Source of the DNA: a virus
UHGV virus genome: UHGV-0120322
Length of the DNA stretch: 16,129 bases
Reading direction: 5' to 3' (one strand)
The position numbers and the translations under genes are program-made. The notes below the pieces were generated by a model. It made no database searches. It saw only the letters and a list, made by a program, of their open reading frames with translations, and was not told the DNA's origin. Of the stretch, positions 1 to 16,129 are shown piece after piece; position 1 is the first letter of the stretch, and each line of letters opens with the position of its first letter.

Positions 1-34
1 TGGGCCGCAGGTTCGAATCCTGCAGGGCGCGCCA
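1..34 (+). tRNA. argU: 3' end of tRNA-Arg (T-arm and acceptor 3' strand ending GCGCGCCA); partial, window starts inside the gene; prophage attL overlaps it
   Basis: Sequence GGTTCGAATCC (T-loop) followed by acceptor 3' strand and CCA; recognised as the argU 3' end which is the known DLP12 integration site; integrase gene immediately adjacent. Confidence 0.8.
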
Positions 35-49
35 TTACAATTCAATCAG

Positions 50-1213
50 TTACGCCTTCTTTATATCCTCCATAATTCCAGAGTGGGACATATTTGGGAC
101 ATTATCACCAAAAATGTCGTCTATTTTCCTCGCATGCTCTGTCAAATGATTAGGCGCAAGGTGAGCATACCTACGAACCATTTCTATGGACTCCCATCCG
201 CCCATTTCCTGAAGCACTGATAATGGGACGCCTGACTGAATCAGCCAGCTTGCCCAGGTGTGTCTGAGGTCATGGAAACGGAAATCTTCAATTCCTGCAC
301 GACGACAAGCTGATAGCCATGATGTCTTGCTGTCGATGCGCATCTTCCTGACCGCAGGCGTTGATGTTCCATCTGCTCGCTTAGCCGCCTTGGTATGTAC
401 AAACACCCATTTGTGATGCTTGCCTATTTGATCACGCAACACTTTACAGGCGGTATCGTTCAGCGCCACACCAATGGCGCGGTTTGATTTGCTCTCTTCT
501 GGATTCACCCAGGCAACTCGTCGCTGCATGTCGATTTGTTGCCATTCCAGATTTATGATGTTCGACTTTCTCAGACCAGTTGCCAGCGCAAACTTGACGA
601 CAGATTTCAGTGGTTCGGGGCACTCATCAATAAGGCGTTTTGCTTCCTCCTTTTCCAGCCATCTGACTCGCTTGTTTCTGACCGCTGGTATCTTGATGAC
701 AGGCGCTTTTTCCAGCCACTTCCAGTCGCGTTCTGCAGCACGGAGAATAGCCTTTATCATGGCAAGATGCTTTGCCTTTGTCTGAGTTGATACTGGCTTT
801 GGTTCATAAACAGGCAGTTCTTTACCTTTCCTGATGGCGGCCTGAACTTTCTGTTTCCATATTTCTTTCGTCTTTCTGTTATGCATTCTGCTTACAGCAG
901 AGTAAATCTTTGCCTCCGAGATATCTTTAAGCCTTATACCCTCAAAATGTTCAAGCCAGAACTCAATCCGGCTTTTATCTGAATCGAGAGATTTTTTATC
1001 AGCTTTTTCCTCAAGCCATCTTAGGCAGGCCTCTTCAAAAGTGACATCAGGTAAATCCCCTAGCTTTTCTACTCGCCAGAGTTCTGCTTTTCGCTTGTCG
1101 TGCAACTCCTGAGCTTGCCGCTTGTCCTTTGTGCCAAGAGATTCCTTAATTCGTTTCCCGCCCGGGAGCGAATACGAGGCATACCATATTTCATTTCTGC
1201 GGAAGAGTGACAT
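50..1213 (-). CDS. intD: Tyrosine site-specific integrase, P22/DLP12 type (387 aa)
   Basis: 387-aa ORF with C-terminal catalytic motifs (HDLRHTWAS...Y) typical of tyrosine recombinases; located next to tRNA-Arg; recognised as IntD-like. Confidence 0.95.
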
Positions 1214-1440
1214 TTTCTTTCCTCTGTTATGCCATCACCCGCGCTCACCTGGACAGTATGCAGCGGAGACTGAAGCGCCGCAATGCAGGCTTGCCGTGTT
1301 GTGAGGTAAGGAGATTTTGGCTTGGTTGGATCTTTACGTGTTGCCTGTAGGCGGCCTGTTCGTATCCAGTTGGTGGCGGTTGGTCTGGATATCTTAAGAA
1401 ACTGACAGGCCTCATCGAGTGTGAGGCTGTATGATTCCAT
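1069..1440 (-). CDS. xis: Excisionase (Xis), P22 type; start taken at [31 protein letters not shown], overlaps the 5' end of int
   Basis: N-terminal helix-turn-helix-like excisionase motif; position directly upstream of int on same strand; frame open to 1069 so 3' end overlaps int by about 145 nt; exact C-terminus uncertain. Confidence 0.6.
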
Positions 1441-1690
1441 GGTTACCTCTGCTTTTTGAACGCATGTCACGTAACTTCTTAATGTGTTCTGCCGTTTCGA
1501 TCTCTTCTGCTATCCGATCTGCATCAGCTTTATTCACAGGTTCAAAGTCATGATTAAAGCGGAACATGCTGGCGATACATGTTCTGCCTTTTCGGATGTA
1601 GTGAACTTTGTTGTGGGTAGAACGCAGGATTTTGCAGGGAGTGCCGTGGTGGTCGACGTACCAGGTGTTAGGGTAAATCACTCTGAACAT
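1412..1690 (-). CDS. Hypothetical small phage protein (92 aa)
   Basis: ORF in tight head-to-tail overlap with xis and the upstream gene, typical of phage early-left accessory operons; no family recognised. Confidence 0.5.
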   Translation of the reverse strand: MFRVIYPNTWYVDHHGTPCKILRSTHNKVHYIRKGRTCIASMFRFNHDFEPVNKADADRIAEEIETAEHIKKLRDMRSKSRGNHGIIQPHTR

Positions 1691-2003
1691 TCTTGACCTT
1701 GTGTTGTGCGGATTGATATTCAGTGCTGATATTCACCTTTATAGCGAACACCTTTACCGGTTTATCGCCAAAGTGTGGATGTGTGATTGTCTTCACTTCA
1801 TATCCGTCATACGGAACATCAATTCTGCGACTGGAATCGTCGCGCTTCGGATATCCCTTTGTGATAATCAGGCGGTCATACTCCCGGAACATAATTCGCT
1901 TATTCCAATAGTCATTACACAGGCGATACTCCTCCGTTTTCTCTCCGCGAATCATGGCATCGAAAAATTCACTTTTAACAGGAAGTTGCAGGTTAGCCAT
2001 CAC
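1668..2003 (-). CDS. Hypothetical phage protein (111 aa), possibly ASCH/PUA-like fold
   Basis: ORF with 4-nt ATGA overlap to the upstream TraR-like gene; motif FFDAMIRGEKTEEYR is reminiscent of ASCH-type domains (weak recognition only). Confidence 0.5.
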   Translation of the reverse strand: MMANLQLPVKSEFFDAMIRGEKTEEYRLCNDYWNKRIMFREYDRLIITKGYPKRDDSSRRIDVPYDGYEVKTITHPHFGDKPVKVFAIKVNISTEYQSAQHKVKNVQSDLP

Positions 2004-2221
2004 TTAATCCCCCTTTGTTTGCGGATAAGCTCCAGATCTTGCTGGCAACTGGCGCAAGTTCGACAACCCTGAACGGCTAGGCGTCTTCGTTCATCTATCG
2101 GATCACCACACTCACAACAATGAGTGGCAGATACAGCCAGGTGGTTCAGGCGGCGCATTTTTATTGCTGTGTTGCGCTGTAATTCTTCTATTTCTGATGC
2201 TGAATCAATGATGTCTGCCAT
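2000..2221 (-). CDS. TraR/DksA-family C4 zinc-finger protein (73 aa)
   Basis: CxxC...(17 aa)...CxxC spacing (CCECGDPIDERRRLAVQGCRTCASC) characteristic of TraR/DksA C4 zinc fingers; common in lambdoid early-left regions. Confidence 0.7.
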   Translation of the reverse strand: MADIIDSASEIEELQRNTAIKMRRLNHLAVSATHCCECGDPIDERRRLAVQGCRTCASCQQDLELIRKQRGIK

Positions 2222-2273
2222 CTTCCATTAATCCCTGAATTGTTGGTTAATACGCTTGAGGGTGAATGCGAAC

Positions 2274-2300
2274 AATAAAAAAGGAGCCTGTAGCTCCCTG
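2274..2300 (-). terminator. Candidate intrinsic terminator for leftward transcription (stem GGAGC/GCTCC followed by U-run on minus strand)
   Basis: Minus-strand reading CCTCAGGGAGCTACAGGCTCCTTTTTTATTG: GC-rich hairpin plus T6 tract, in the 98-bp gap between two minus-strand genes. Confidence 0.45.
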
Positions 2301-2319
2301 AGGATTTTGCTTTTCATGT

Positions 2320-2601
2320 TCACCGTTCCTTAAAGGCGCCGTTTAACATACCGATTGCCAGACTTAAATGAGTCGGTGTGAATCCCATCAGCGTTACCGT
2401 TTCGCGGTGCTTCTTCAGTACGCTACGGCAAATGTCATCGACGTTTTTATCCGGAAACTGCTGTCTGGCTTTTTTGATTTCAGAATTAGCCTGACGGGCA
2501 ATGCTGCGAAGGGCGTTTTCCTGCTGAGGTGTCACTGAACAAGCCCCATGTCGGCAAGCATAAGCACACAGAATATGAAGCCCGCTGCCAGAAAAATGCA
2601 T
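2320..2601 (-). CDS. Hypothetical protein at the lambda orf61 position (93 aa from first ATG; true start may be internal)
   Basis: ORF directly downstream of the orf63-like gene; Cys/His-rich N-terminus without clear RBS, so start uncertain (in-frame GTG at codon 23 is an alternative). Confidence 0.45.
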   Translation of the reverse strand: MHFSGSGLHILCAYACRHGACSVTPQQENALRSIARQANSEIKKARQQFPDKNVDDICRSVLKKHRETVTLMGFTPTHLSLAIGMLNGAFKER

Positions 2602-2611
2602 TCAGTGGTTG

Positions 2612-2803
2612 TCATACCTGGTCTCTCTCATCTGCTTCTGCTTTCGCCACCATCATTTCCAGCTTTTGTGAAAGGGATGCGGCTAACGTATGAAATTCTT
2701 CGTCTGTTTCTACTGGTATTGGCACAAACCTGACTCCAATTTGAGCAAGGTTATGTGCCATCTCAATACTCGTTCTTAACTCAACAGGAGATGCTTTGTG
2801 CAT
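2612..2803 (-). CDS. Lambda orf63-like small protein (63 aa)
   Basis: 63-aa ORF with strong SD (GGGAGG 5 nt upstream of ATG); same size and position (second gene downstream of exo) as lambda orf63. Confidence 0.6.
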   Translation of the reverse strand: MHKASPVELRTSIEMAHNLAQIGVRFVPIPVETDEEFHTLAASLSQKLEMMVAKAEADERDQV

Positions 2804-2964
2804 ACCGCCTCCCGTTTATTATTTATCTTCTCAGCCAGCCGCTGTGCTTTCAGTGGATTTCTGATAACAGAAAGGCCGGGAAATACCCAGCCTCGCTTTG
2901 TAACGGAGTAGACGAAAGTGATCGCGCCTACCCGGATATTATCGTGAGGATGCGTCATCGCCAT
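2776..2964 (-). CDS. Lambda orf60a-like small protein (62 aa), start overlaps the 3' end of exo
   Basis: ORF starting 10 nt inside the end of exo with GGGGAG SD-like sequence; position equivalent to lambda orf60a. Confidence 0.4.
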
Positions 2965-3635
2965 TGCTCCCCAAATACAAAACCAATTTCAGCCAGTGCC
3001 TCGTCCATTTTTTCGATGAACTCCGGCACCATCTCGTTAAAACTCGCCATGTACTTTTCATCCCGCTCAACCACGACATAATGCAGTCCTTCACGCTTCA
3101 TACGCGGGTCATAGTTGGCAAAGTACCAGGCATCTTTTTGTGTCACCCACATGCTGTACTGCACCTGGGCCATGTAAGCCGATTTTATGGCCTCGAAACC
3201 ACCGAGCCGGAACTTCATGAAATCCCGGGAGGTAAACGGGCATTTCAGTTCAAGGCCGTTGCCGTCACTGCATAAACCATCGGGAGAGCAGGCGGTGCGC
3301 ATACTTTCGTCGCGATAGATGATCGGGGATTCAGTAACATTCACGCCGGAAGTGAACTCAAAGAGGGCTCTGGCGTCGTTCTCGTACTGTTTTCCCCAGG
3401 CCAGCGCCTTAGCGTTAACTTCCGGAGCCACACCGGTGCAAACCTCGGCAAGCAGGGTGTGGAAGTAGGACATTTTCATGTCAGGCCACTTCTTTCCGGA
3501 GCGGGGTTTTGCTATCACATTGTGAACTTCTGAAGCGGTGATGACGCCGAGCCGTAATTTGTGCCATGCATCATCCCCCTGTTCGACAGCTCTCACGTCG
3601 ATCCCGGTACGCTGCAGGATAATGTCCGGTGTCAT
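2955..3635 (-). CDS. exo: Lambda exonuclease, Red-alpha (226 aa), full length
   Basis: Translation [40 protein letters not shown]... recognised as essentially identical to phage lambda Exo over its full length. Confidence 0.97.
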
Positions 3636-4417
3636 GCTGCCACCTTCTGCTCAGTGGCTTTCTGTTTCAGGAATCCAAGAGCTTTCACTGCTTCGGCCTG
3701 TGTCAGTTCTGACGATGCGCGAATGTCGCGGCGAAATATCTGGGAACAGAGCGGCAATAAGTCGTCATCCCATGTTTTATCCAGGGCGATCAGCAGAGTG
3801 TTAATTTCCTGCATGGTTTCATCGTTAACCGGAGTGATGTCGCGTTCCGGCTGACGTTCTGCAGTGTATGCGGTATTTTCGACAATGCGCTCGGCTTCAT
3901 CCTTGTCATAGATACCCGCAAATCCGAAGGCCAGACGGGCACACTGAATCATGGCTTTATGCCGTAACATCCGTTTGGGATGCGACTGCCACGGTCCGGT
4001 GATTTCTCTGCCTTCGCGGGTTTTGAATGGTTCGCGGCGGCATTCATCCATCCACTCGGTAACGCAGATCGGATGATTGCGGTCTTTGCGGTAAATCCGG
4101 CATGTGCAGGATTCGTTGTCCTGTTCAAAGTTCATGCCGTCAAACTGCTGGTTTTCGTTGATGATGCGGGACCAGCCATCAACGCCCACCACCGGAACGA
4201 TGCCGTTCTGCTTATCAGGGAAGGCGTAAATTTCTTTCGTCCACGGATTAAGGCCGTACTGGTTGGCGACGATCAACAATGCGATGAACTGCGCATCGCT
4301 GGCATCACCTTTAAATGCCGTCTGGCGAAGAGTGGTGATCAGTTCCTGTGGGTCGACAGAATCCATGCCGACACGTTCAGCCAGCTTCCCAGCCAGCGTT
4401 GCGAGTGCTGTACTCAT
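3632..4417 (-). CDS. bet: Lambda Bet, Red-beta single-strand annealing protein (261 aa), full length
   Basis: Translation [59 protein letters not shown]... recognised as lambda Bet; ATGA overlap with exo. Confidence 0.97.
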
Positions 4418-4422
4418 CCGTT

Positions 4423-4533
4423 TTATACCTCTGAATCAATATCAACCTGGTGGTGAGCAATGGTTTCAACCATGTACCGGATGTGTTCTGCCATGCGCTC
4501 CTGAAACTCAACATCGTCATCAAACGCACGGGT
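4423..4533 (-). pseudogene. gam: gam fragment: only the C-terminal ~36 codons of lambda Gam ([36 protein letters not shown]) are present
   Basis: C-terminal 36 aa match lambda Gam; the N-terminal 48 aa of the 84-aa ORF (4423..4677) are unrelated and encoded antisense to P; junction at about 4531-4534. Confidence 0.85.
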
Positions 4534-5137
4534 ACAACAGGTAGCGCAGATCATCAATGGTGTGTTCAGCCAGTTACTGGCAACTTTCCCGGCGAGCCTG
4601 GCTAACCGGGACCAGAACGAACTGAACGAAATCCGCCGCCAGTGGGTTCTGGCTTTCCGGGAAAACGGGATCACCACGATGGAACAGGTTAACGCAGGAA
4701 TGCGCGTAGCCCGTCGGCAGAATCGACCATTCCTGCCATCACCCGGGCAGTTTGTTGCCTGGTGCCGGGAAGAAGCATCCGTTACCGCCGGGCTGCCAAA
4801 CGCCAGCGAGCTGGTTGATATGGTTTACGAGTATTGCCGGAAACGTGGCCTGTATCCAGATGCAGAGTCTTATCCGTGGAAATCAAACGCGCACTACTGG
4901 CTGGTTACCAACCTGTATCAGAACATGCGGGCCAATGCGCTGACTGATGCGGAATTACGGCGCAAGGCTGCCGATGAACTGGCCTGTATGACAGCGCGAA
5001 TTAACCGTGGTGAGGCGATACCTGAACCAGTAAAACAACTTCCTGTCATGGGCGGGAGACCGCTTAATCGTGTTCAGGCTCTGGCGAAGATCGCAGAAAT
5101 CAAAGCGAAGTTTGGGCTGAAAGGAGCAAGTGTATGA
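4532..5137 (+). pseudogene. peaD: Replication protein P, 5'-truncated (lacks about the first 30-40 codons and its own start/RBS); equivalent to peaD of DLP12
   Basis: Frame translates as [30 protein letters not shown]...KAKFGLKGASV, matching lambda P from about residue 33 to the C-terminus; no ATG or SD at the 5' end. Confidence 0.9.
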
Positions 5138-5427
5138 CGGGCAAAGAGGCAATTATTCATTACCTGGGGACTCATAAGAACTTCTGTGCGCAGGACGTTG
5201 CCGCGGTAACAGGCGCAACAGTAACCAGCATAAATCAGGCTGCGGCTAAAATGGCGCGGGCAGGAATCTTGGTCATTGATGGTAAGGTCTGGCGAACGGT
5301 GTATTACAGATTCGCTACCAGGGAAGAACGGGAAGGAAAGGTGAGCACTAACCTGATTTTTAAGGAGTGTCGCCAGAGTGCCGCGATGAAGCGGGTGTTG
5401 ATGGTTTGGGGGAGGGTAGGGGTATGA
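5134..5427 (+). CDS. ren: Ren (lambda Ren homolog, 97 aa)
   Basis: MTGKEAIIHYLGTH...VTSINQAAAKMARAG...VWRTVYYRFATREEREGK recognised as lambda Ren; ATGA overlap with P stop. Confidence 0.9.
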   Translation: MTGKEAIIHYLGTHKNFCAQDVAAVTGATVTSINQAAAKMARAGILVIDGKVWRTVYYRFATREEREGKVSTNLIFKECRQSAAMKRVLMVWGRVGV

Positions 5428-5624
5428 GCATGATGGATTTCGCAGAAACTAAAAAGGCTATCGACGCCATCACAACCGACTGGTCTATCCGAGGACCGTA
5501 TCACGAAGACGACGGGAAATATTACGCCTTGCTTCGTGGAGAGTGGGTTGGTGGCGGGTATATCGGAAAACGGAAAGCCCTTGATGCCATTCTCGAAAAG
5601 TTAATCCAGGAGGCCGCCCAATGA
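5424..5624 (+). CDS. Hypothetical small phage protein (66 aa), nin-region equivalent
   Basis: ATG with GGGAGGGTAGGGG upstream, ATGA overlap with ren stop; in frame with ORF-track entry 5367..5624. Confidence 0.55.
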   Translation: MSMMDFAETKKAIDAITTDWSIRGPYHEDDGKYYALLRGEWVGGGYIGKRKALDAILEKLIQEAAQ

Positions 5625-5851
5625 GCAACATCGACAAACCAATGACAAACCGTGAACTGGTGGATGCCGCCATTGAATTGGCCGGAGAGTTTTATGCGAT
5701 GCAGGGCTATTCGCATCGTCCTGGCTTCAAGTATTGGCAATCTCCGCACCCGCATGAGCGCCTGTGCTTTGAAATGGCTTGTGTGGCATTCGAAACCATT
5801 CGCGGCTCAGATGTAATGGACGCCGTATCTGAGTTGGAGGATGAAGAATGA
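5621..5851 (+). CDS. Hypothetical small phage protein (76 aa), N-terminus MSNIDK
   Basis: AGGAGG SD 7 nt upstream, ATGA overlaps on both sides (translational coupling). Confidence 0.55.
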   Translation: MSNIDKPMTNRELVDAAIELAGEFYAMQGYSHRPGFKYWQSPHPHERLCFEMACVAFETIRGSDVMDAVSELEDEE

Positions 5852-5964
5852 GCAACATCGACAAACGCGCATTACGTGAAATCGCTGAGGCAGCAGTTGG
5901 TGCACATGAGCGCCTTAGTGTTATGCCGCCTGATGACATTTTCGATATCTCACTGGCAGAATGA
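5848..5964 (+). CDS. Short ORF (38 aa) with MSNIDK N-terminus; probably the N-terminal part of a larger gene interrupted by in-frame TGA at 5962-5964
   Basis: GGAGG SD 7 nt upstream of ATG; same reading frame as the 5965..6261 ORF, which has no SD or ATG of its own. Confidence 0.4.
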   Translation: MSNIDKRALREIAEAAVGAHERLSVMPPDDIFDISLAE

Positions 5965-10118: not shown

Positions 10119-11201
10119 TTAGAACTGGTAAACCATACCTACAGCAACGATATCATCGGTAGCAACGCCAGATGCTTTCGTGAAATCGCTCTTATCAATC
10201 AGGTTGATTTTGTAGTCAACAAAAGTGGACATATTTTTGTTGAAGTAATAGGTTGCACCTACATCAACATATTCAACCAGGTCCTGATCACCCCAAACAC
10301 CCAAGTCTTTTCCTTTAGAATGCAGGTAAGCAACGGATGGACGCAGGCCGAAGTCGAACTGATATTGTGCAACAGCTTCGAAGTTTTGTGCTTTGTTGGC
10401 AATATGGTTATTACCAAAAACAGTCATGTTCTGGGTTTCAGAATAGGTGGTGGCCAGATAGATGTTGTTCGCATCATATTTCAGACCAGCTGCCCATACT
10501 TCAGCATTTTGACCAGAAGCATTCAGACCGTTGTTACCGTAGATAACCTGATTATTAGTGCGATCAGATTTAGCATAGGTTGCACCCACGCCGAATCCTT
10601 CATACTCATAAGTAGTTGAGAAACCGAAACCATCGCCATTAGCTTCAGTTACTTCTTTTCGGTCATTTTTGCCCTGATACTGAGCTGCAAAGTTCAGGCC
10701 ATCAACCAGACCAAAGAAGTCGTTGTTACGATAAGTTGCAACACCTGTGGTGCGACCAGTCATGAATACATCTGTTTGGGTCCAGGTATCGCCACCGAAT
10801 TCTGGCAGAACGTCGGTCCATGCACCAATATCGTATGCTACACCGTAGTTACGGCCATAATCGATGGAGCCGTAGTCACCGAATTTCAGGCCAGCGAAGG
10901 CAAGACGGGTTTTATCTTTGGAGGAACCTTGAGATTCAGCGCGGTTGCCTTTGAATTCATATTCCCACTGACCGAAACCAGTCAGTTGATCGTTGATTTG
11001 GGTTTCACCTTTGAAGCCAAGACGGGCATAAGTAGTATCACCATCATCTGCATCATTAGAGGAGAAGTAGTGCTTAGCATTAACTTTCCCGTACAGATCC
11101 AGCTTGTTACTGTCTTTATTATAAATTTCAGCTGCCTGAGCAGACATCGCCATCAGTACTGATGCAGCTACAGCAGAAATTGCCACTGTTAATTTTTTCA
11201 T
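10119..11201 (-). CDS. nmpC: Outer-membrane porin, OmpC/NmpC (Lc) family, intact (360 aa with signal peptide [23 protein letters not shown])
   Basis: Classic general-porin sequence ending in the C-terminal aromatic residue (...VGMVYQF); encoded antisense between Q and the lysis genes as in DLP12/PA-2. Confidence 0.95.
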
Positions 11202-12503: not shown

Positions 12504-12958
12504 GCAGAGTAACCGCGATTATCTCCGCTCTGGTTATCTGCATCATCGTCTGCCTGTCATTGGCTGTTAATCATTACCGTGATAACGCAATCGCCTACAA
12601 AGAGCAGCGCGATAACAAGGCCAGTGAACTGGAGAAGGCGAACGCCACCATCGCTGACATGCGGAAGCGTCAACGTGATGTAGCAGAACTCGACGCAAGA
12701 TACACAAAGGAGCTTGCTGATGCTAACGCGACTATCGAAAGTCTCCGTGCTGATGTTTCTGCTGGGCGTAAGCGCCTGCAAGTCGCCGCCACCTGTGCAA
12801 AGTCAACGACCGGAGCCAGCGGCATGGGCGATGGAGAAAGCCCAGGACTTACAGCAGATGCTGAACTCAATTATTACCGTCTCCGAAGTGGAATCGACAA
12901 GATAACCGCGCAGGTTAACTACCTGCAGGAATACATCAGGACGCAATGCCTGAAATAA
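12500..12958 (+). CDS. rzpD: Rz i-spanin (inner-membrane spanin subunit)
   Basis: ATGA overlap with endolysin stop; N-terminal TM helix ([20 protein letters not shown]) then coiled-coil-like periplasmic domain. Confidence 0.85.
12714..12905 (+). CDS. rzoD: Rz1 o-spanin lipoprotein embedded in the +1 frame of Rz (63 aa precursor; lipobox VSAC; proline-rich mature part)
   Basis: AAGGAG SD 7 nt upstream of ATG inside Rz; signal peptide plus lipobox Cys, then [12 protein letters not shown]. Confidence 0.8.
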
Positions 12959-12989
12959 TTTTTTTGCAAATCACAAAGTCCATTTAATG

Positions 12990-13014
12990 AGCCTCGCGAT
13001 GCGGGGCTTTTTTT
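12990..13014 (+). terminator. Intrinsic terminator after the lysis cassette (AGCCTCGC-GAT-GCGGGGCT followed by T7)
   Basis: 8-bp stem with one G-U pair, 3-nt loop, immediately followed by TTTTTTT, 32 nt after the Rz stop. Confidence 0.65.
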
Positions 13015-13163
13015 ACATCTGAATTTCACAGCGCATCTCACGCGCATATTACATCACCCGAGCCTTTCAGAAAGTTGAGCCTGAGAACTGCCGTATATGG
13101 TGGCGACCATCTCGGGGCGGCTTTTCTGTGAGACAGGCTCACTTTCTAAAAGGTAAAGACGCT

Positions 13164-13652
13164 ATGAACCAATTAGAAGAAAAGCTTCAAAGAATGATTT
13201 CCTTATACAAGGAAGATAACTGCCAAAAAGTTCCTGAAAACATCGCAGAGTTAATGGAATTGGCAAGTGAATTTTCTGGCATGCTTAAGTCGTCAGGTGT
13301 TCGGTCAGCGTTCTTTGTTGAAATGCTGATGCACGGCGGACTTATGGCAACAATGAGACGTGTAATGGAAGACCAGAGAAAAGAACCTCCTCAGGTATAC
13401 GTTTTGTCATCGAAGAAAACTGGGCTAACCAAAATTGGGTATTCATCCAACATTCCACAACGCATCAAATCGCTTGGCAACTCTGGACCAGACTGCTTGA
13501 AGCTTGAGTGCCTGATCCCTGGTGGAAGAGAAACTGAAAACATGCTTCATCGCAAATTTGCCGCAAAGAGAAAGCACGGTGAATGGTTCGCCCTGTCCAA
13601 GGATGACATTGAGGGATTGAAATCTGTAGCGATTACTTCTGATGGCTATTAA
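13164..13652 (+). CDS. GIY-YIG superfamily / T5orf172-domain protein (162 aa): helical N-terminal region plus C-terminal T5orf172-like nuclease-fold domain
   Basis: C-terminal motifs VYVLSSKKTGLTKIGYSSN ... R ... E ... GEWF match the T5orf172 (GIY-YIG-like) pattern; AAGG SD; sits where lambda carries bor; lower GC than the lysis genes. Confidence 0.7.
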   Translation: MNQLEEKLQRMISLYKEDNCQKVPENIAELMELASEFSGMLKSSGVRSAFFVEMLMHGGLMATMRRVMEDQRKEPPQVYVLSSKKTGLTKIGYSSNIPQRIKSLGNSGPDCLKLECLIPGGRETENMLHRKFAAKRKHGEWFALSKDDIEGLKSVAITSDGY

Positions 13653-14120
13653 TGCTTGTTTAGAGCAATTTTCATAACAACTCTTCATTACAAAGCCCAT
13701 CTACTGGTGGGCTTGATAATGAAACCGTGATTTACATCCCCACAATCCGGGTATGTAAAAGATAGTTCAGGCGAGAACGGATTTAACTAAATCTGTGCGC
13801 CACCAGTTAACGGCAGTACCACGAAACAACCCAAGCCAGTAAGTGGGGAAATAACACCGGCAGCCACTGAAAGATGAACCTCCTGCCTTATGGCAAAAAA
13901 GATTCTTTGTGGTGGCGGACTGATGGAAAGACATCCTAATTTCAGCCAAACATTGAAGGAGTTGTTATGTCAGCAGAAGGTTTCAATAACCCATCAAAAT
14001 TCCGGGATGAGTGGGATAGCAGCGTAAAGAGTAAGTGATGCCATCACAAAAGCCATTCCCTACAGAGTGGCTTTGATAATGGCTTATACCCTACACGGGA
14101 TAACTTAACTGATATCCCTT

Positions 14121-14798: not shown

Positions 14799-15032
14799 TC
14801 AATCTGGTCTGACCTGCTTTCTGAGCAATTCAGTAATGTCACTCTTTTCTTTGTTTGCTTCAGGCGAAACTCTTTTTTCTGAGCACAGTCTTCGGCGGCA
14901 GGCTTCAATGACCCAGGCTGAGAAATTCCCGGACCCTTTTTGATCAAGAGCGATGTTAATTTGTTCAATCATTTGGTTAGGAAAGCGGATGTTGCGGGTT
15001 GTTGTTCTGCGGGTTCTGTTCTTCGTTGACAT
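14799..15032 (-). CDS. ylcI: Ribbon-helix-helix (Arc/MetJ/CopG-like) small DNA-binding protein, DUF3950/YlcI-like (77 aa)
   Basis: Basic N-terminus then RNIRFPNQMIEQINIALDQKG-SGNFSAWVIEACRRRL, a beta-strand/helix/G-turn/helix RHH pattern; the conserved NIRF motif is recalled for YlcI-type proteins (tentative). Confidence 0.6.
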   Translation of the reverse strand: MSTKNRTRRTTTRNIRFPNQMIEQINIALDQKGSGNFSAWVIEACRRRLCSEKRVSPEANKEKSDITELLRKQVRPD

Positions 15033-15189
15033 GAGGTTGCCCTGTATTCAGTGTCACTGATTTGTATTGTCTGAAGTTGTTTTTACGTTAAGTTGATGCA
15101 GATCAATTAATACGATACCTGCGTCATAATTGATTATTTGACGTGGTTTGATGGCGTAGATGCACGTTGTGACATGTAGATGATAATCA

Positions 15190-15420
15190 TTATCATTTTG
15201 CGGGTCCTTTCCGGCGATCCGACAGGTTACGGGGCGGCGACCTCGCGGGTTTTCGCTATTTATGAAAATTTTCCGGTTTAAGGTGTTTCCGTTCTTCTTC
15301 GTCGTAACTTAATGTTTTTATTTAAAATACCCCCTGAAAAGAAAGGAAACGACAGGTGCTGAAAACGGGCTTTTTGGCCTCTGTCGTTTCCTTTCTCTGT
15401 TTTTGTCCGTGGAATGAACA
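15190..15420. other. Lambda-type cos site: cosQ-side right-end sequence, cosN 12-nt cohesive end GGGCGGCGACCT at 15232-15243, cosB region up to the Nu1 start
   Basis: ...CCGACAGGTTACG|GGGCGGCGACCTCGCGGGTTTTCGCTATTTATGAAAATTTTCCGGTTTAAGG... recognised as the joined right and left ends of phage lambda with a few substitutions. Confidence 0.85.
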
Positions 15421-15648
15421 ATGGAAGTCAACAAAAAGCAGCTGGCTGACATTTTCGGTGCGAGTATCCGTACCATTCAGAACTGGCAGGAACAGGGAAT
15501 GCCCGTTCTGCGAGGCGGTGGCAAGGGTAATGAGGTGCTTTATGACTCTGCCGCCGTCATAAAATGGTATGCCGAAAGGGATGCTGAAATTGAGAACGAA
15601 AACCCGGCATCTGATGCCGTTAACGATTTGCTGAACACACCAGTGTAA
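15421..15648 (+). pseudogene. Terminase small subunit Nu1, N-terminal ~60 codons only, fused in frame to an unrelated 15-codon tail
   Basis: MEVNKKQLADIFGASIRTIQNWQEQGMPVLRGGGKGNEVLYDSAAVIKWYAERDAEIENE matches lambda Nu1 (winged-helix DNA-binding domain); the remainder NPASDAVNDLLNTPV does not. Confidence 0.85.
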
Positions 15649-15657
15649 GGGATGTTT

Positions 15658-15828
15658 ATGACGAGCAAAGAAACCTTTACCCATTACCAGCCGCTGGGCA
15701 ACAGTGACCCGGCTCATACCGCAACCGCGCCCGGCGGATTGAGTGCGAAAGCGCCTGCAATGACCCCGCTGATGCCGGATAAGTGGTGTGTAAATTCTAG
15801 CCCCATCATCTGTGTTTTTTTTCATTAA
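15658..15828 (+). pseudogene. Head decoration protein D fragment (first ~39 codons of lambda gpD, then unrelated sequence to a stop)
   Basis: [39 protein letters not shown] matches the lambda gpD N-terminus; diverges after PLM. Confidence 0.8.
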
Positions 15829-15893
15829 TTTCACCATGTTATAGTTTTATTTGTGAATTAAATCAATTATGGCAATGAATTACAAGGGGTTAA

Positions 15894-16129
15894 ATGCTGC
15901 CGCAGCATAGCGATATTGAAATAGCCTGGTATGCTTCAATACAGCAGGAGCCGAATGGCTGGAAGACCGTCACCACACAGTTCTACATCCAGGAATTCAG
16001 TGAGTATATTGCGCCACTGCAGGATGCTGTAGATCTGGAAATCGCAACGGAGGAAGAAAGATCGTTGCTGGAAGCCTGAAAAAAGTATCGGGTGCTGCTA
16101 AACCGTGTGGACACTTCCGTAGCACCAGA
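15894..16129 (+). pseudogene. Tail-fibre assembly protein (Tfa family) C-terminal fragment with in-frame TGA at 16077-16079 replacing the conserved Trp; runs off the window end
   Basis: ...[40 protein letters not shown] matches the Tfa C-terminal consensus ([17 protein letters not shown]) apart from the stop. Confidence 0.75.

Follow-up and report, generated by a model that had tools for sequence, protein, structure and literature searches.

An orphan lambda-type cos site and a truncated Nu1 gene at the end of a probable DLP12-family prophage remnant of Escherichia coli

We have analysed positions 15190-15900 of the virus genome UHGV-0120322 (16,129 nt; this whole stretch is called the window below), where a cos packaging site closely resembling that of phage lambda stands next to the first codons of Nu1, the gene for the small terminase subunit (TerS), and to small remains of other genes. 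In our reading, to which we give a probability of roughly 0.78, these positions represent the cos/Nu1 end of a defective lambdoid prophage of the DLP12 family (qsr' type) that is located at argU in E. coli; its cos has stayed competent for packaging of lambda specificity, the structural genes beside it have been lost in steps, and the terminase of a helper phage would be able to use the site.

The family and the location can be recognized from the gene content of the window. Positions 1-34 correspond to argU positions 44-77, and an intact intD (50-1213) with 99.7% identity to intD of strain C8 adjoins the 3' end of the argU tRNA gene. From the left end on, the window carries the argU 3' end, intD, exo, bet, a partial gam, a truncated P and ren, followed by ybcN-ninE-ybcO-rusA-ylcG-quuD-porin-essD-rrrD-Rz-ybcV-ylcI-cos-nohD'-tfaX, which is collinear with annotated DLP12-family prophages. 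The family order from the nin region to tfaX-appY-ompT can be followed to its end, with appY, ompT, envY, ybcH and nfrA found downstream of tfaX in the contig L026, whose sequence is identical to the window. A full-length relative occupies the same site in strain C8, with a complete head and tail set from Nu1 to J, then stf, tfa, ybcY, tfaX, appY and ompT. From attL to attR our element spans only about 19-20 kb, and comparison with C8 reveals three deletions inside it, one from gam to P, one from Nu1 nt 182 to C nt 1273 and one from D nt 122-124 to ybcY. At the gam-P junction (4531-4534, within the region 4423-5137), the C-terminal part of gam is placed directly on a P gene without its first 95 nt, and kil, the repressor and cro region, the YdaT gene and the O-like initiator have been removed. 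Because O is deleted and P is truncated, the element cannot replicate; on its gene content it is a remnant without immunity and without replication initiation.

The cos site has been preserved almost unchanged. Window positions 14870-15602 align to the circularised lambda junction (48141-48502 plus 1-372) with 96.9% identity, and within 15190-15420 only 7 substitutions (lambda 48467, 48471, 48486, 53, 73, 102 and 134) and one 1-bp deletion (lambda 137) distinguish the two sequences. An earlier note on this DNA, which was prepared from the sequence by itself, had called the cos near-identical to lambda and had proposed an alignment to lambda; the alignment agrees with that description, defines the breakpoints discussed below and reveals no disabling substitution in cosN or cosB. 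The resemblance of the region to lambda goes far beyond coincidence. The packaging termination element cosQ (GGGTCCT, 15202-15208, plus strand) is identical to lambda 48473-48479 and lies about 17 bp upstream of the cosN region. The cosN sequence (15230-15245, flanking symmetric bases included) is also identical to that of lambda, and has a single exact match in the whole window. Positions 15232-15243 form its 12-nt cohesive end, GGGCGGCGACCT, and nicking would be expected between 15231 and 15232 on the top strand and between 15243 and 15244 on the bottom strand. The spacer I2 between cosN and R3 (15244-15280, lambda 13-49) has neither substitutions nor indels. As lambda 48487 through lambda 52 show no difference at all, cosN, I2 and the distance from cosN to R3 are intact, and the spacing between cosN and cosB is critical according to Murialdo and Feiss.

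In cosB, the main TerS binding site R3 (15281-15296, plus strand, lambda 50-65) has one change, C to T at lambda bp 53. Murialdo and Feiss placed R3 at bp 50-65, the TerS contacts at bp 55-63 and the packaging-defective changes at bp 56, 58 and 59; the change at bp 53 lies outside the contacted and the critical positions, and the same base is present in phages 2H10 and PhiR70_1 and in K-12 DLP12. The I1 region between R3 and R2 (15297-15339), where integration host factor (IHF) bends the DNA, has matches to the IHF consensus, the best at 15305-15322 on the minus strand; the substitutions at 15304 and 15333 lie outside these matches and occur also in deposited phage genomes. R2 (15340-15355, minus strand, lambda 109-124), which is inverted relative to R3 and R1, and R1 (15381-15396, plus strand, lambda 151-166) are identical to lambda and form the expected inverted repeat with R2 as its left arm. 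The R3-I1-R2-R1 architecture is thus found complete, with no indel between lambda 1 and 136, and the 1-bp deletion between R2 and R1 is common to every natural phage compared. Phage 2H10 has all 8 differences and is 1 base off the window over 231 bp; PhiR70_1, whose recorded host is E. coli C, has most of them, and K-12 DLP12 several. With every defining element present, the cos is, as judged from its sequence, a competent packaging site of lambda specificity. Just left of cosQ, a sigma-70-like site at 15169-15196 (plus strand; GTGACA, 16-nt spacer, TATCAT, 10/12), the best match of the region, points to the Nu1 fragment and is closer to the consensus than lambda is there.

To the right of cosB lies a 75-codon fusion open reading frame (ORF) (15421-15648, plus strand), composed of Nu1 codons 1-60 (15421-15600) and the last 15 codons and stop of C/Nu3 (15601-15648). 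The Nu1 codons are identical to lambda at the nucleotide level, residues 1-60 are identical in protein sequence to the DNA-binding domain structures PDB 1J9I and 6HN7, and the Pfam family Phage_Nu1 covers residues 1-63 (E 2.5e-36). The tail NPASDAVNDLLNTPV, with the stop codon after it, equals lambda 5690-5737 in the C/Nu3 frame, and the PHROG profile 'capsid assembly protein' is matched at its very end by residues 55-75. The view in the earlier note that Nu1 was cut after about 60 codons with its winged-helix domain kept is therefore well founded, the whole domain lying within residues 1-60, and its assumption that the fused peptide came from the end of the scaffold gene can now be replaced by this in-frame assignment. 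The recognition helix (residues 17-24), the wing (31-39) and both dimer patches, I11-G13 (I11, F12, G13) and S43-A51 (with S43, A44, I47 and A51), have been retained, and the native lambda ribosome-binding site and start codon stand upstream. When the ORF, which ends at residue 75, is compared with the domains of TerS, the DNA-binding part is present and the central oligomerisation and C-terminal TerL-binding domains are absent; the fusion ORF therefore cannot be a terminase subunit. As to reference structures, PDB 7LW0 is placed under TerL in one review, yet its deposited chains are named small subunit.

At junction 1 (15601-15602), lambda 372 is joined to lambda 5690 with a 2-bp AA microhomology, and window positions 15601-15779 align to lambda 5690-5868 with 98.9% identity. 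The stub of the head decoration gene D that follows (15658-15781, plus strand) is 98.9% identical to lambda and, up to 15781, 100% identical to the allele of D found in strain A25; it has 41 codons, not 39 as had been counted earlier. At junction 2 (15781/15782), D meets the methyltransferase gene ybcY, of which the first 19 codons are left (15782-15837, minus strand; start codon at 15837); the N-terminus of this stub matches YbcY of C8, and the region maps to ybcY of both C8 and K-12. Beyond the upstream region of ybcY lies the tfaX pseudogene (15894-16129, plus strand), a tail fibre assembly fragment with the Pfam domain Caudo_TAP and an internal TGA at 16077-16079, which runs off the window end and aligns over 15987-16117 to lambda tfa 22381-22511 with 85.5% identity. 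The earlier succession of a D stub and then a Tfa fragment was right as to both pieces and overlooked the ybcY stub between them. The Tfa stub had also been counted as part of the local collapse, which does not hold: the tfaX pseudogene is common to K-12, C8 and the other DLP12-family loci examined, and it is annotated identically in K-12, PSS-08-1 and C8.

Several further observations concern these junctions. The window and PSS-08-1 share the right breakpoint in ybcY codon 19 (...GATA/AGTGG; 15781/15782 in the window, 7552/7553 in L001) and differ in the left partner, D in the window and tfa in PSS-08-1; there is microhomology between D (CCGGATA) and the tfa stub (CCGATA), and an ancestral junction common to both together with a microhomology deletion may account for the shared breakpoint. 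The minus strand, that of ybcY, carries an ORF at 15322-15837, a promoter-like site at 15866-15893 upstream of the ybcY start that might permit antisense transcription over the D and Nu1 fragments and cos, and a terminator-like hairpin at 15605-15619, which is made of the C-end hairpin and the T-run of the junction and lies exactly at junction 1; the latter two are matches to a consensus only. In L014 (507-1079), a divergent lambdoid remnant with about 75% identity to lambda, Nu1 residues 1-45 are fused in frame to C-terminal residues of C/Nu3, giving 77 aa, with an intact D next to them. As this fusion is independent, the architecture of a deletion from Nu1 to the C end has arisen more than once.

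The order of the deletions can be read from related contigs. Exactly this 75-residue protein has been recorded from 6 contigs, and two of them, L026 and L028, match the window at 100% identity; among 5,426 complete E. coli genomes, none has the exact allele. A scan of species-representative genomes for the exact junction and another for a degenerate pattern gave zero matches, and a metagenome scan gave 2 contigs only. The contig L027 has the identical 372/5690 junction and still contains D, E, FI and FII at full length as well as portions of the tail genes, which tells that the deletion from Nu1 to C occurred first and that from D to ybcY later. As the series from the full-length C8 through the intermediate L027 to the window shows, the collapse of the structural module was a stepwise one, and the earlier suggestion of at least two further deletions that spared cos is borne out by this series. 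A microhomology deletion removed Nu1 codon 61 through almost all of C (lambda 372 to 5690), with the 75-codon Nu1(1-60)::C-tail ORF as its by-product; a later one took the sequence from D codon 42 through to ybcY codon 19; and a third deletion, from gam to P, eliminated the immunity and replication functions. The allele illustrates cleanly, step by step, how the structural module of a lambdoid prophage is lost while its cos is kept.

By itself the region would be inert. If a co-resident or infecting phage supplied a terminase of lambda specificity, the enzyme would be expected to bind at R3-I1-R2-R1 together with IHF and to nick at cosN; the cut would then act as a double-strand break promoting recombination with the phage, and it would also start unidirectional packaging rightwards through the Nu1 and D fragments, tfaX, appY, ompT and envY, and the site could also end packaging begun at an upstream cos. 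Because packaging runs rightwards, the flanking chromosome would be mobilised and the prophage body, which is on the other side of the cut, would be left behind. The range of genome lengths packaged by lambda is 37.7-52 kb, and mature transducing particles would be formed only if a second cos in the same orientation lay about one lambda genome length downstream. There is published precedent for such behaviour. De Paepe et al. obtained recombinants of lambda with K-12 DLP12 at about 100-fold the frequency seen for Qin or Rac; of the junctions sequenced, half adjoined cos, and recombinants carrying DLP12 nu1 were viable. Feiss et al. (2015; PMC4669245) reported that a helper terminase packages passive prophages from a chromosomal cos, giving 0.7-2 phage per cell, with cosN and cosB required for initiation and cosQ, cosN and I2 for termination. 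In O157 Sakai, the prophage Sp4, whose Nu1 is disrupted by an insertion sequence (IS), is packaged in trans, most likely by the terminase of Sp14, the cos of which is identical (Asadulghani et al., 2009; PMC2669165). Remnants bearing cos are known as places where infecting lambdoid phages recombine and exchange genes with the chromosome, and with a second cos nearby they can serve as start or stop points for trans-packaging of host DNA, which would here include appY-ompT-envY.

Some points weigh against this reading. A helper with lambda packaging specificity and, for particles, a properly spaced second cos would have to be present in the host, and no second cos lies within 10 kb downstream; cleavage and packaging are predicted by precedent, and expression is putative. 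Some of the 'phage' records used for comparison may be prophage assemblies and not plaque-purified phages. A cos without private mutations is equally what a recent deletion would leave, so that its preservation is not evidence of use or maintenance. One may thus suppose that this chromosomal cos is never productively used and is neutral debris of recent deletions, with no consequence for phage or host. The rarity of the exact allele (0 of the 5,426 complete genomes, 6 contigs), the lack of private changes in Nu1 1-60 and cos, as a young deletion predicts, and the absence of replication functions all suit such a relic. However, the equivalent cos region of K-12 DLP12 interacts measurably with infecting lambda, a helper terminase does use a chromosomal cos in the dilysogens and in O157, and nothing in the sequence of the window would prevent the same here; we regard complete inertness as unlikely.

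The opposite supposition, that selection has kept cos as a mobilisation device of a satellite or cos island, by which appY-ompT or the element itself spreads in helper capsids, appears still far less credible, and we give it hardly any weight. It can appeal to the intact intD and to the fact that cos has been kept in all DLP12-family alleles compared, every deletion starting to the right of it (at lambda 372, 918 or 1018). However, the location of cos on the left side of every deletion, possibly together with gene conversion from phages, accounts for this retention. Replication functions, an Rpp and a distinct cosB are all missing from the element; the helix-turn-helix gene fragment adjoining intD, possibly a remnant of xis, is annotated as a pseudogene in C8 and MRE162; the packaging direction points away from the element; and mature particles are impossible from a single cos. 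A phage-inducible chromosomal island (PICI) or similar satellite was considered as a candidate and rejected: relative to C8, the element has lost the O-like initiator and the immunity region together with the first 95 nt of P, cosB is the phage's own and of lambda type, and no Rpp-like gene was seen among the window ORFs mapped. Self-mobilisation of the PICI kind is excluded.

It may also be asked whether the Nu1(1-60) fragment acts as an interference protein, which would occupy cosB or form mixed dimers with the TerS of a helper and thereby lower helper packaging. The Rpp protein of PICIs carries a TerS-like DNA-binding domain and replaces the second TerS domain in the dimer, blocking lambda packaging; it does so by mimicking exactly the domain that the fragment represents, in which the recognition helix, the wing and both dimer patches are kept behind the native translation start of lambda. 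Fragments of Nu1 that comprise the DNA-binding domain only and end at codon 60 recur in several prophages, and small stand-alone proteins of this fold are known from a defence system: the domain (residues 1-55, 15421-15585) matches the 60-residue PADLOC profile mad1 with E 3e-12. We have rejected membership of a MADS defence system, since the mad1 match reflects a generic small winged-helix fold, the neighbours are ordinary prophage genes and other mad genes are absent. Against interference, DNA binding by lambda TerS in vitro is of low affinity and non-specific; the predicted affinity of the isolated-domain homodimer, about 3e-5 M, is about 100-fold weaker than the 4e-7 M of Rpp-TerS; a mixed dimer of the fragment and TerS would, unlike one with Rpp, keep lambda cosB specificity; and the codon-60 alleles, all of them rare, end in junk tails that differ from one allele to the next, which speaks against selection for the protein. 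In a scan for promoters and terminators the match counts were no higher than in shuffled sequence and no own promoter stood out; transcription of the fragment would normally come by read-through from the late operon only. A real role of the fragment in blocking a helper is in our estimation very unlikely; interference is conceivable and would probably be weak.

The breakpoint in Nu1 deserves attention in its own right. A protein search with the 75-residue ORF found many truncated Nu1 ORFs, with breakpoints spread across residues 14-101, and several of them end ...ENE/N. Lambda nt 372, the end of Nu1 codon 60, is the left endpoint of 8 distinct junctions including that of the window (loci: window 15597-15606, L011, L015, L016, L017, L018, L020, L022-L025 and L027), and the Nu1 left flank at this recurrent endpoint ends ...GAGAACGAAAA. 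The right partner is lambda 3370 (B) in the complete genome MRE162 and in L016, lambda 4485 (C) in L011, lambda 5140 (C) in L018, lambda 5690 (the C end) in the window and L027, one site in stf in L015 and a second in L024 and L025, lambda 17529 (J) in L020, whose context is Qin-like, and lambda 7159 (the E end) in L022 and L023, which belong to another prophage. Six of the eight right partners start with AAYCCG. Lambda 1-23000 has 9 AACCCG sites, and 4 of them are among these six partners; for independent events, the probability of 6/8 would be about 3e-10. Native Nu1 reads AAGCTG at this point and has AA alone in common, as left parent, with the partners. The product is also related to cos: CGAAAACCCG at the junction (15597-15606) is a perfect 10-nt inverted repeat of CGGGTTTTCG at 15246-15255 (lambda 15-24; lambda 15-23 is CGGGTTTTC), directly to the right of the nick in the bottom strand of cosN. 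In its native form, Nu1 366-377 (CGAAAAGCTGCG) is already a 10/12 inverted copy of lambda 13-24 beside that nick, and the recurrent product GAAAACCCG completes the inverted repeat with this region.

On these grounds the cut at codon 60 might be regarded as a sequence-directed hotspot tied to cos, generated by quasi-palindrome template switching or by mis-repair after cos cutting, with the fragments perhaps persisting as Rpp-like decoys; lambdoid prophages would then be repeatedly turned into cos-plus remnants that encode the TerS DNA-binding domain only. We hold this to be improbable as a whole. Alternatively, the pattern may go back to one founder deletion (372/3370), after which 6-bp repeats gave rise to secondary deletions and gene conversion acted around cos. 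The alleles with the 372 endpoint sit in at least three prophage contexts and differ in the cos haplotype of their 730-bp left flanks, and the occurrence in Qin-like and other prophage contexts favours at least some independent events. Four other origins of the endpoint were tried and rejected. An IS-mediated adjacent deletion fails because IS sequence is found at none of the junctions; a pseudo-site of a serine invertase (Pin-like) would fit the 2-bp AA overlap, but the half-sites are unlike hix, gix and cix; a secondary att site of IntD is contradicted by the absence of the motif from the att core (window 1-36); and a natural Nu1 allele reading ...ENENP is contradicted by the absence of the 30-mer ending GAAAACCCG from 50,697 phage records. 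Among complete E. coli genomes, this 30-mer is found in strain MRE162 only. If there is a true mechanism behind it, the 372 breakpoint with AAYCCG partners would represent a specific route of prophage decay, and these junctions are the sole feature that is without explanation here.

In the rest of the window, the ylcI/ynfO-family gene (14799-15032, minus strand; Pfam DUF3950, annotated so in relatives) is the last intact gene left of cos. The ompC/nmpC-type porin gene (10119-11201, minus strand) is intact with 360 aa, and the copy in K-12 DLP12 is broken by IS5. Between Rz and ybcV, in the slot that bor occupies in lambda and K-12, an ORF of 174 aa related to T5orf172/MUG113 (GIY-YIG-like; 13128-13652, plus strand) sits in a segment of about 1.09 kb (about 12952-14038) which PSS-08-1, in other respects the closest genome, does not have; the ORF has a strong match to phrog_4284 and a weak one to PADLOC PDC-S57, and may be a moron or a defence-type cargo gene. 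A literature search on 'nohD' returned unrelated acronyms only.

Among known systems, the cos-type PICI EcCICFT073 (Fillol-Salom et al., 2019; PMC6739421) resembles the window in being chromosomal, in having lambda-like cosQ and cosN and in depending on helper TerS/TerL, and its small DNA-binding protein of TerS fold, Rpp, pairs with TerS. However, PICIs replicate and have their own cosB, which is read by Rpp-TerS, and Rpp binds TerS with high affinity and possesses an additional dimerisation domain, whereas the window has a phage-type cosB, no replication module and no Rpp. Sp4 of O157 Sakai is likewise a defective lambdoid prophage with a disrupted Nu1 and an intact cos, but it is amplified by the regional replication of a neighbouring prophage, is excisable and is near genome size (PMC2669165). 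The lambda dilysogens (PMC4669245), in which packaging is initiated at a first chromosomal cosQ-N-B and terminated at the following one, represent the mechanism that we propose for the window, but their prophages were engineered as tandems and their two cos sites are spaced by one genome length, whereas the window has one known cos. A further counterpart is DLP12 of K-12, with the same argU/intD site, gene order, cos haplotype family, tfaX pseudogene and downstream appY-ompT, and with a cos/nu1 region experimentally active with lambda. It differs in having a full-length nohD, about 100 A codons whose junction with tfa is at lambda 1018/22119, and a frameshifted ybcY; in the window, Nu1 is cut at codon 60, stubs of the C tail and D and 19 ybcY codons are left, the gam-to-P deletion has removed the immunity region, and the porin gene is intact. 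The allele is a variant, unrecorded in the 5,426 complete E. coli genomes, of a well-known type, the DLP12/qsr'-type defective prophage with an orphan cos, and the behaviour proposed for it is already documented in close relatives and will be no surprise to the specialist.

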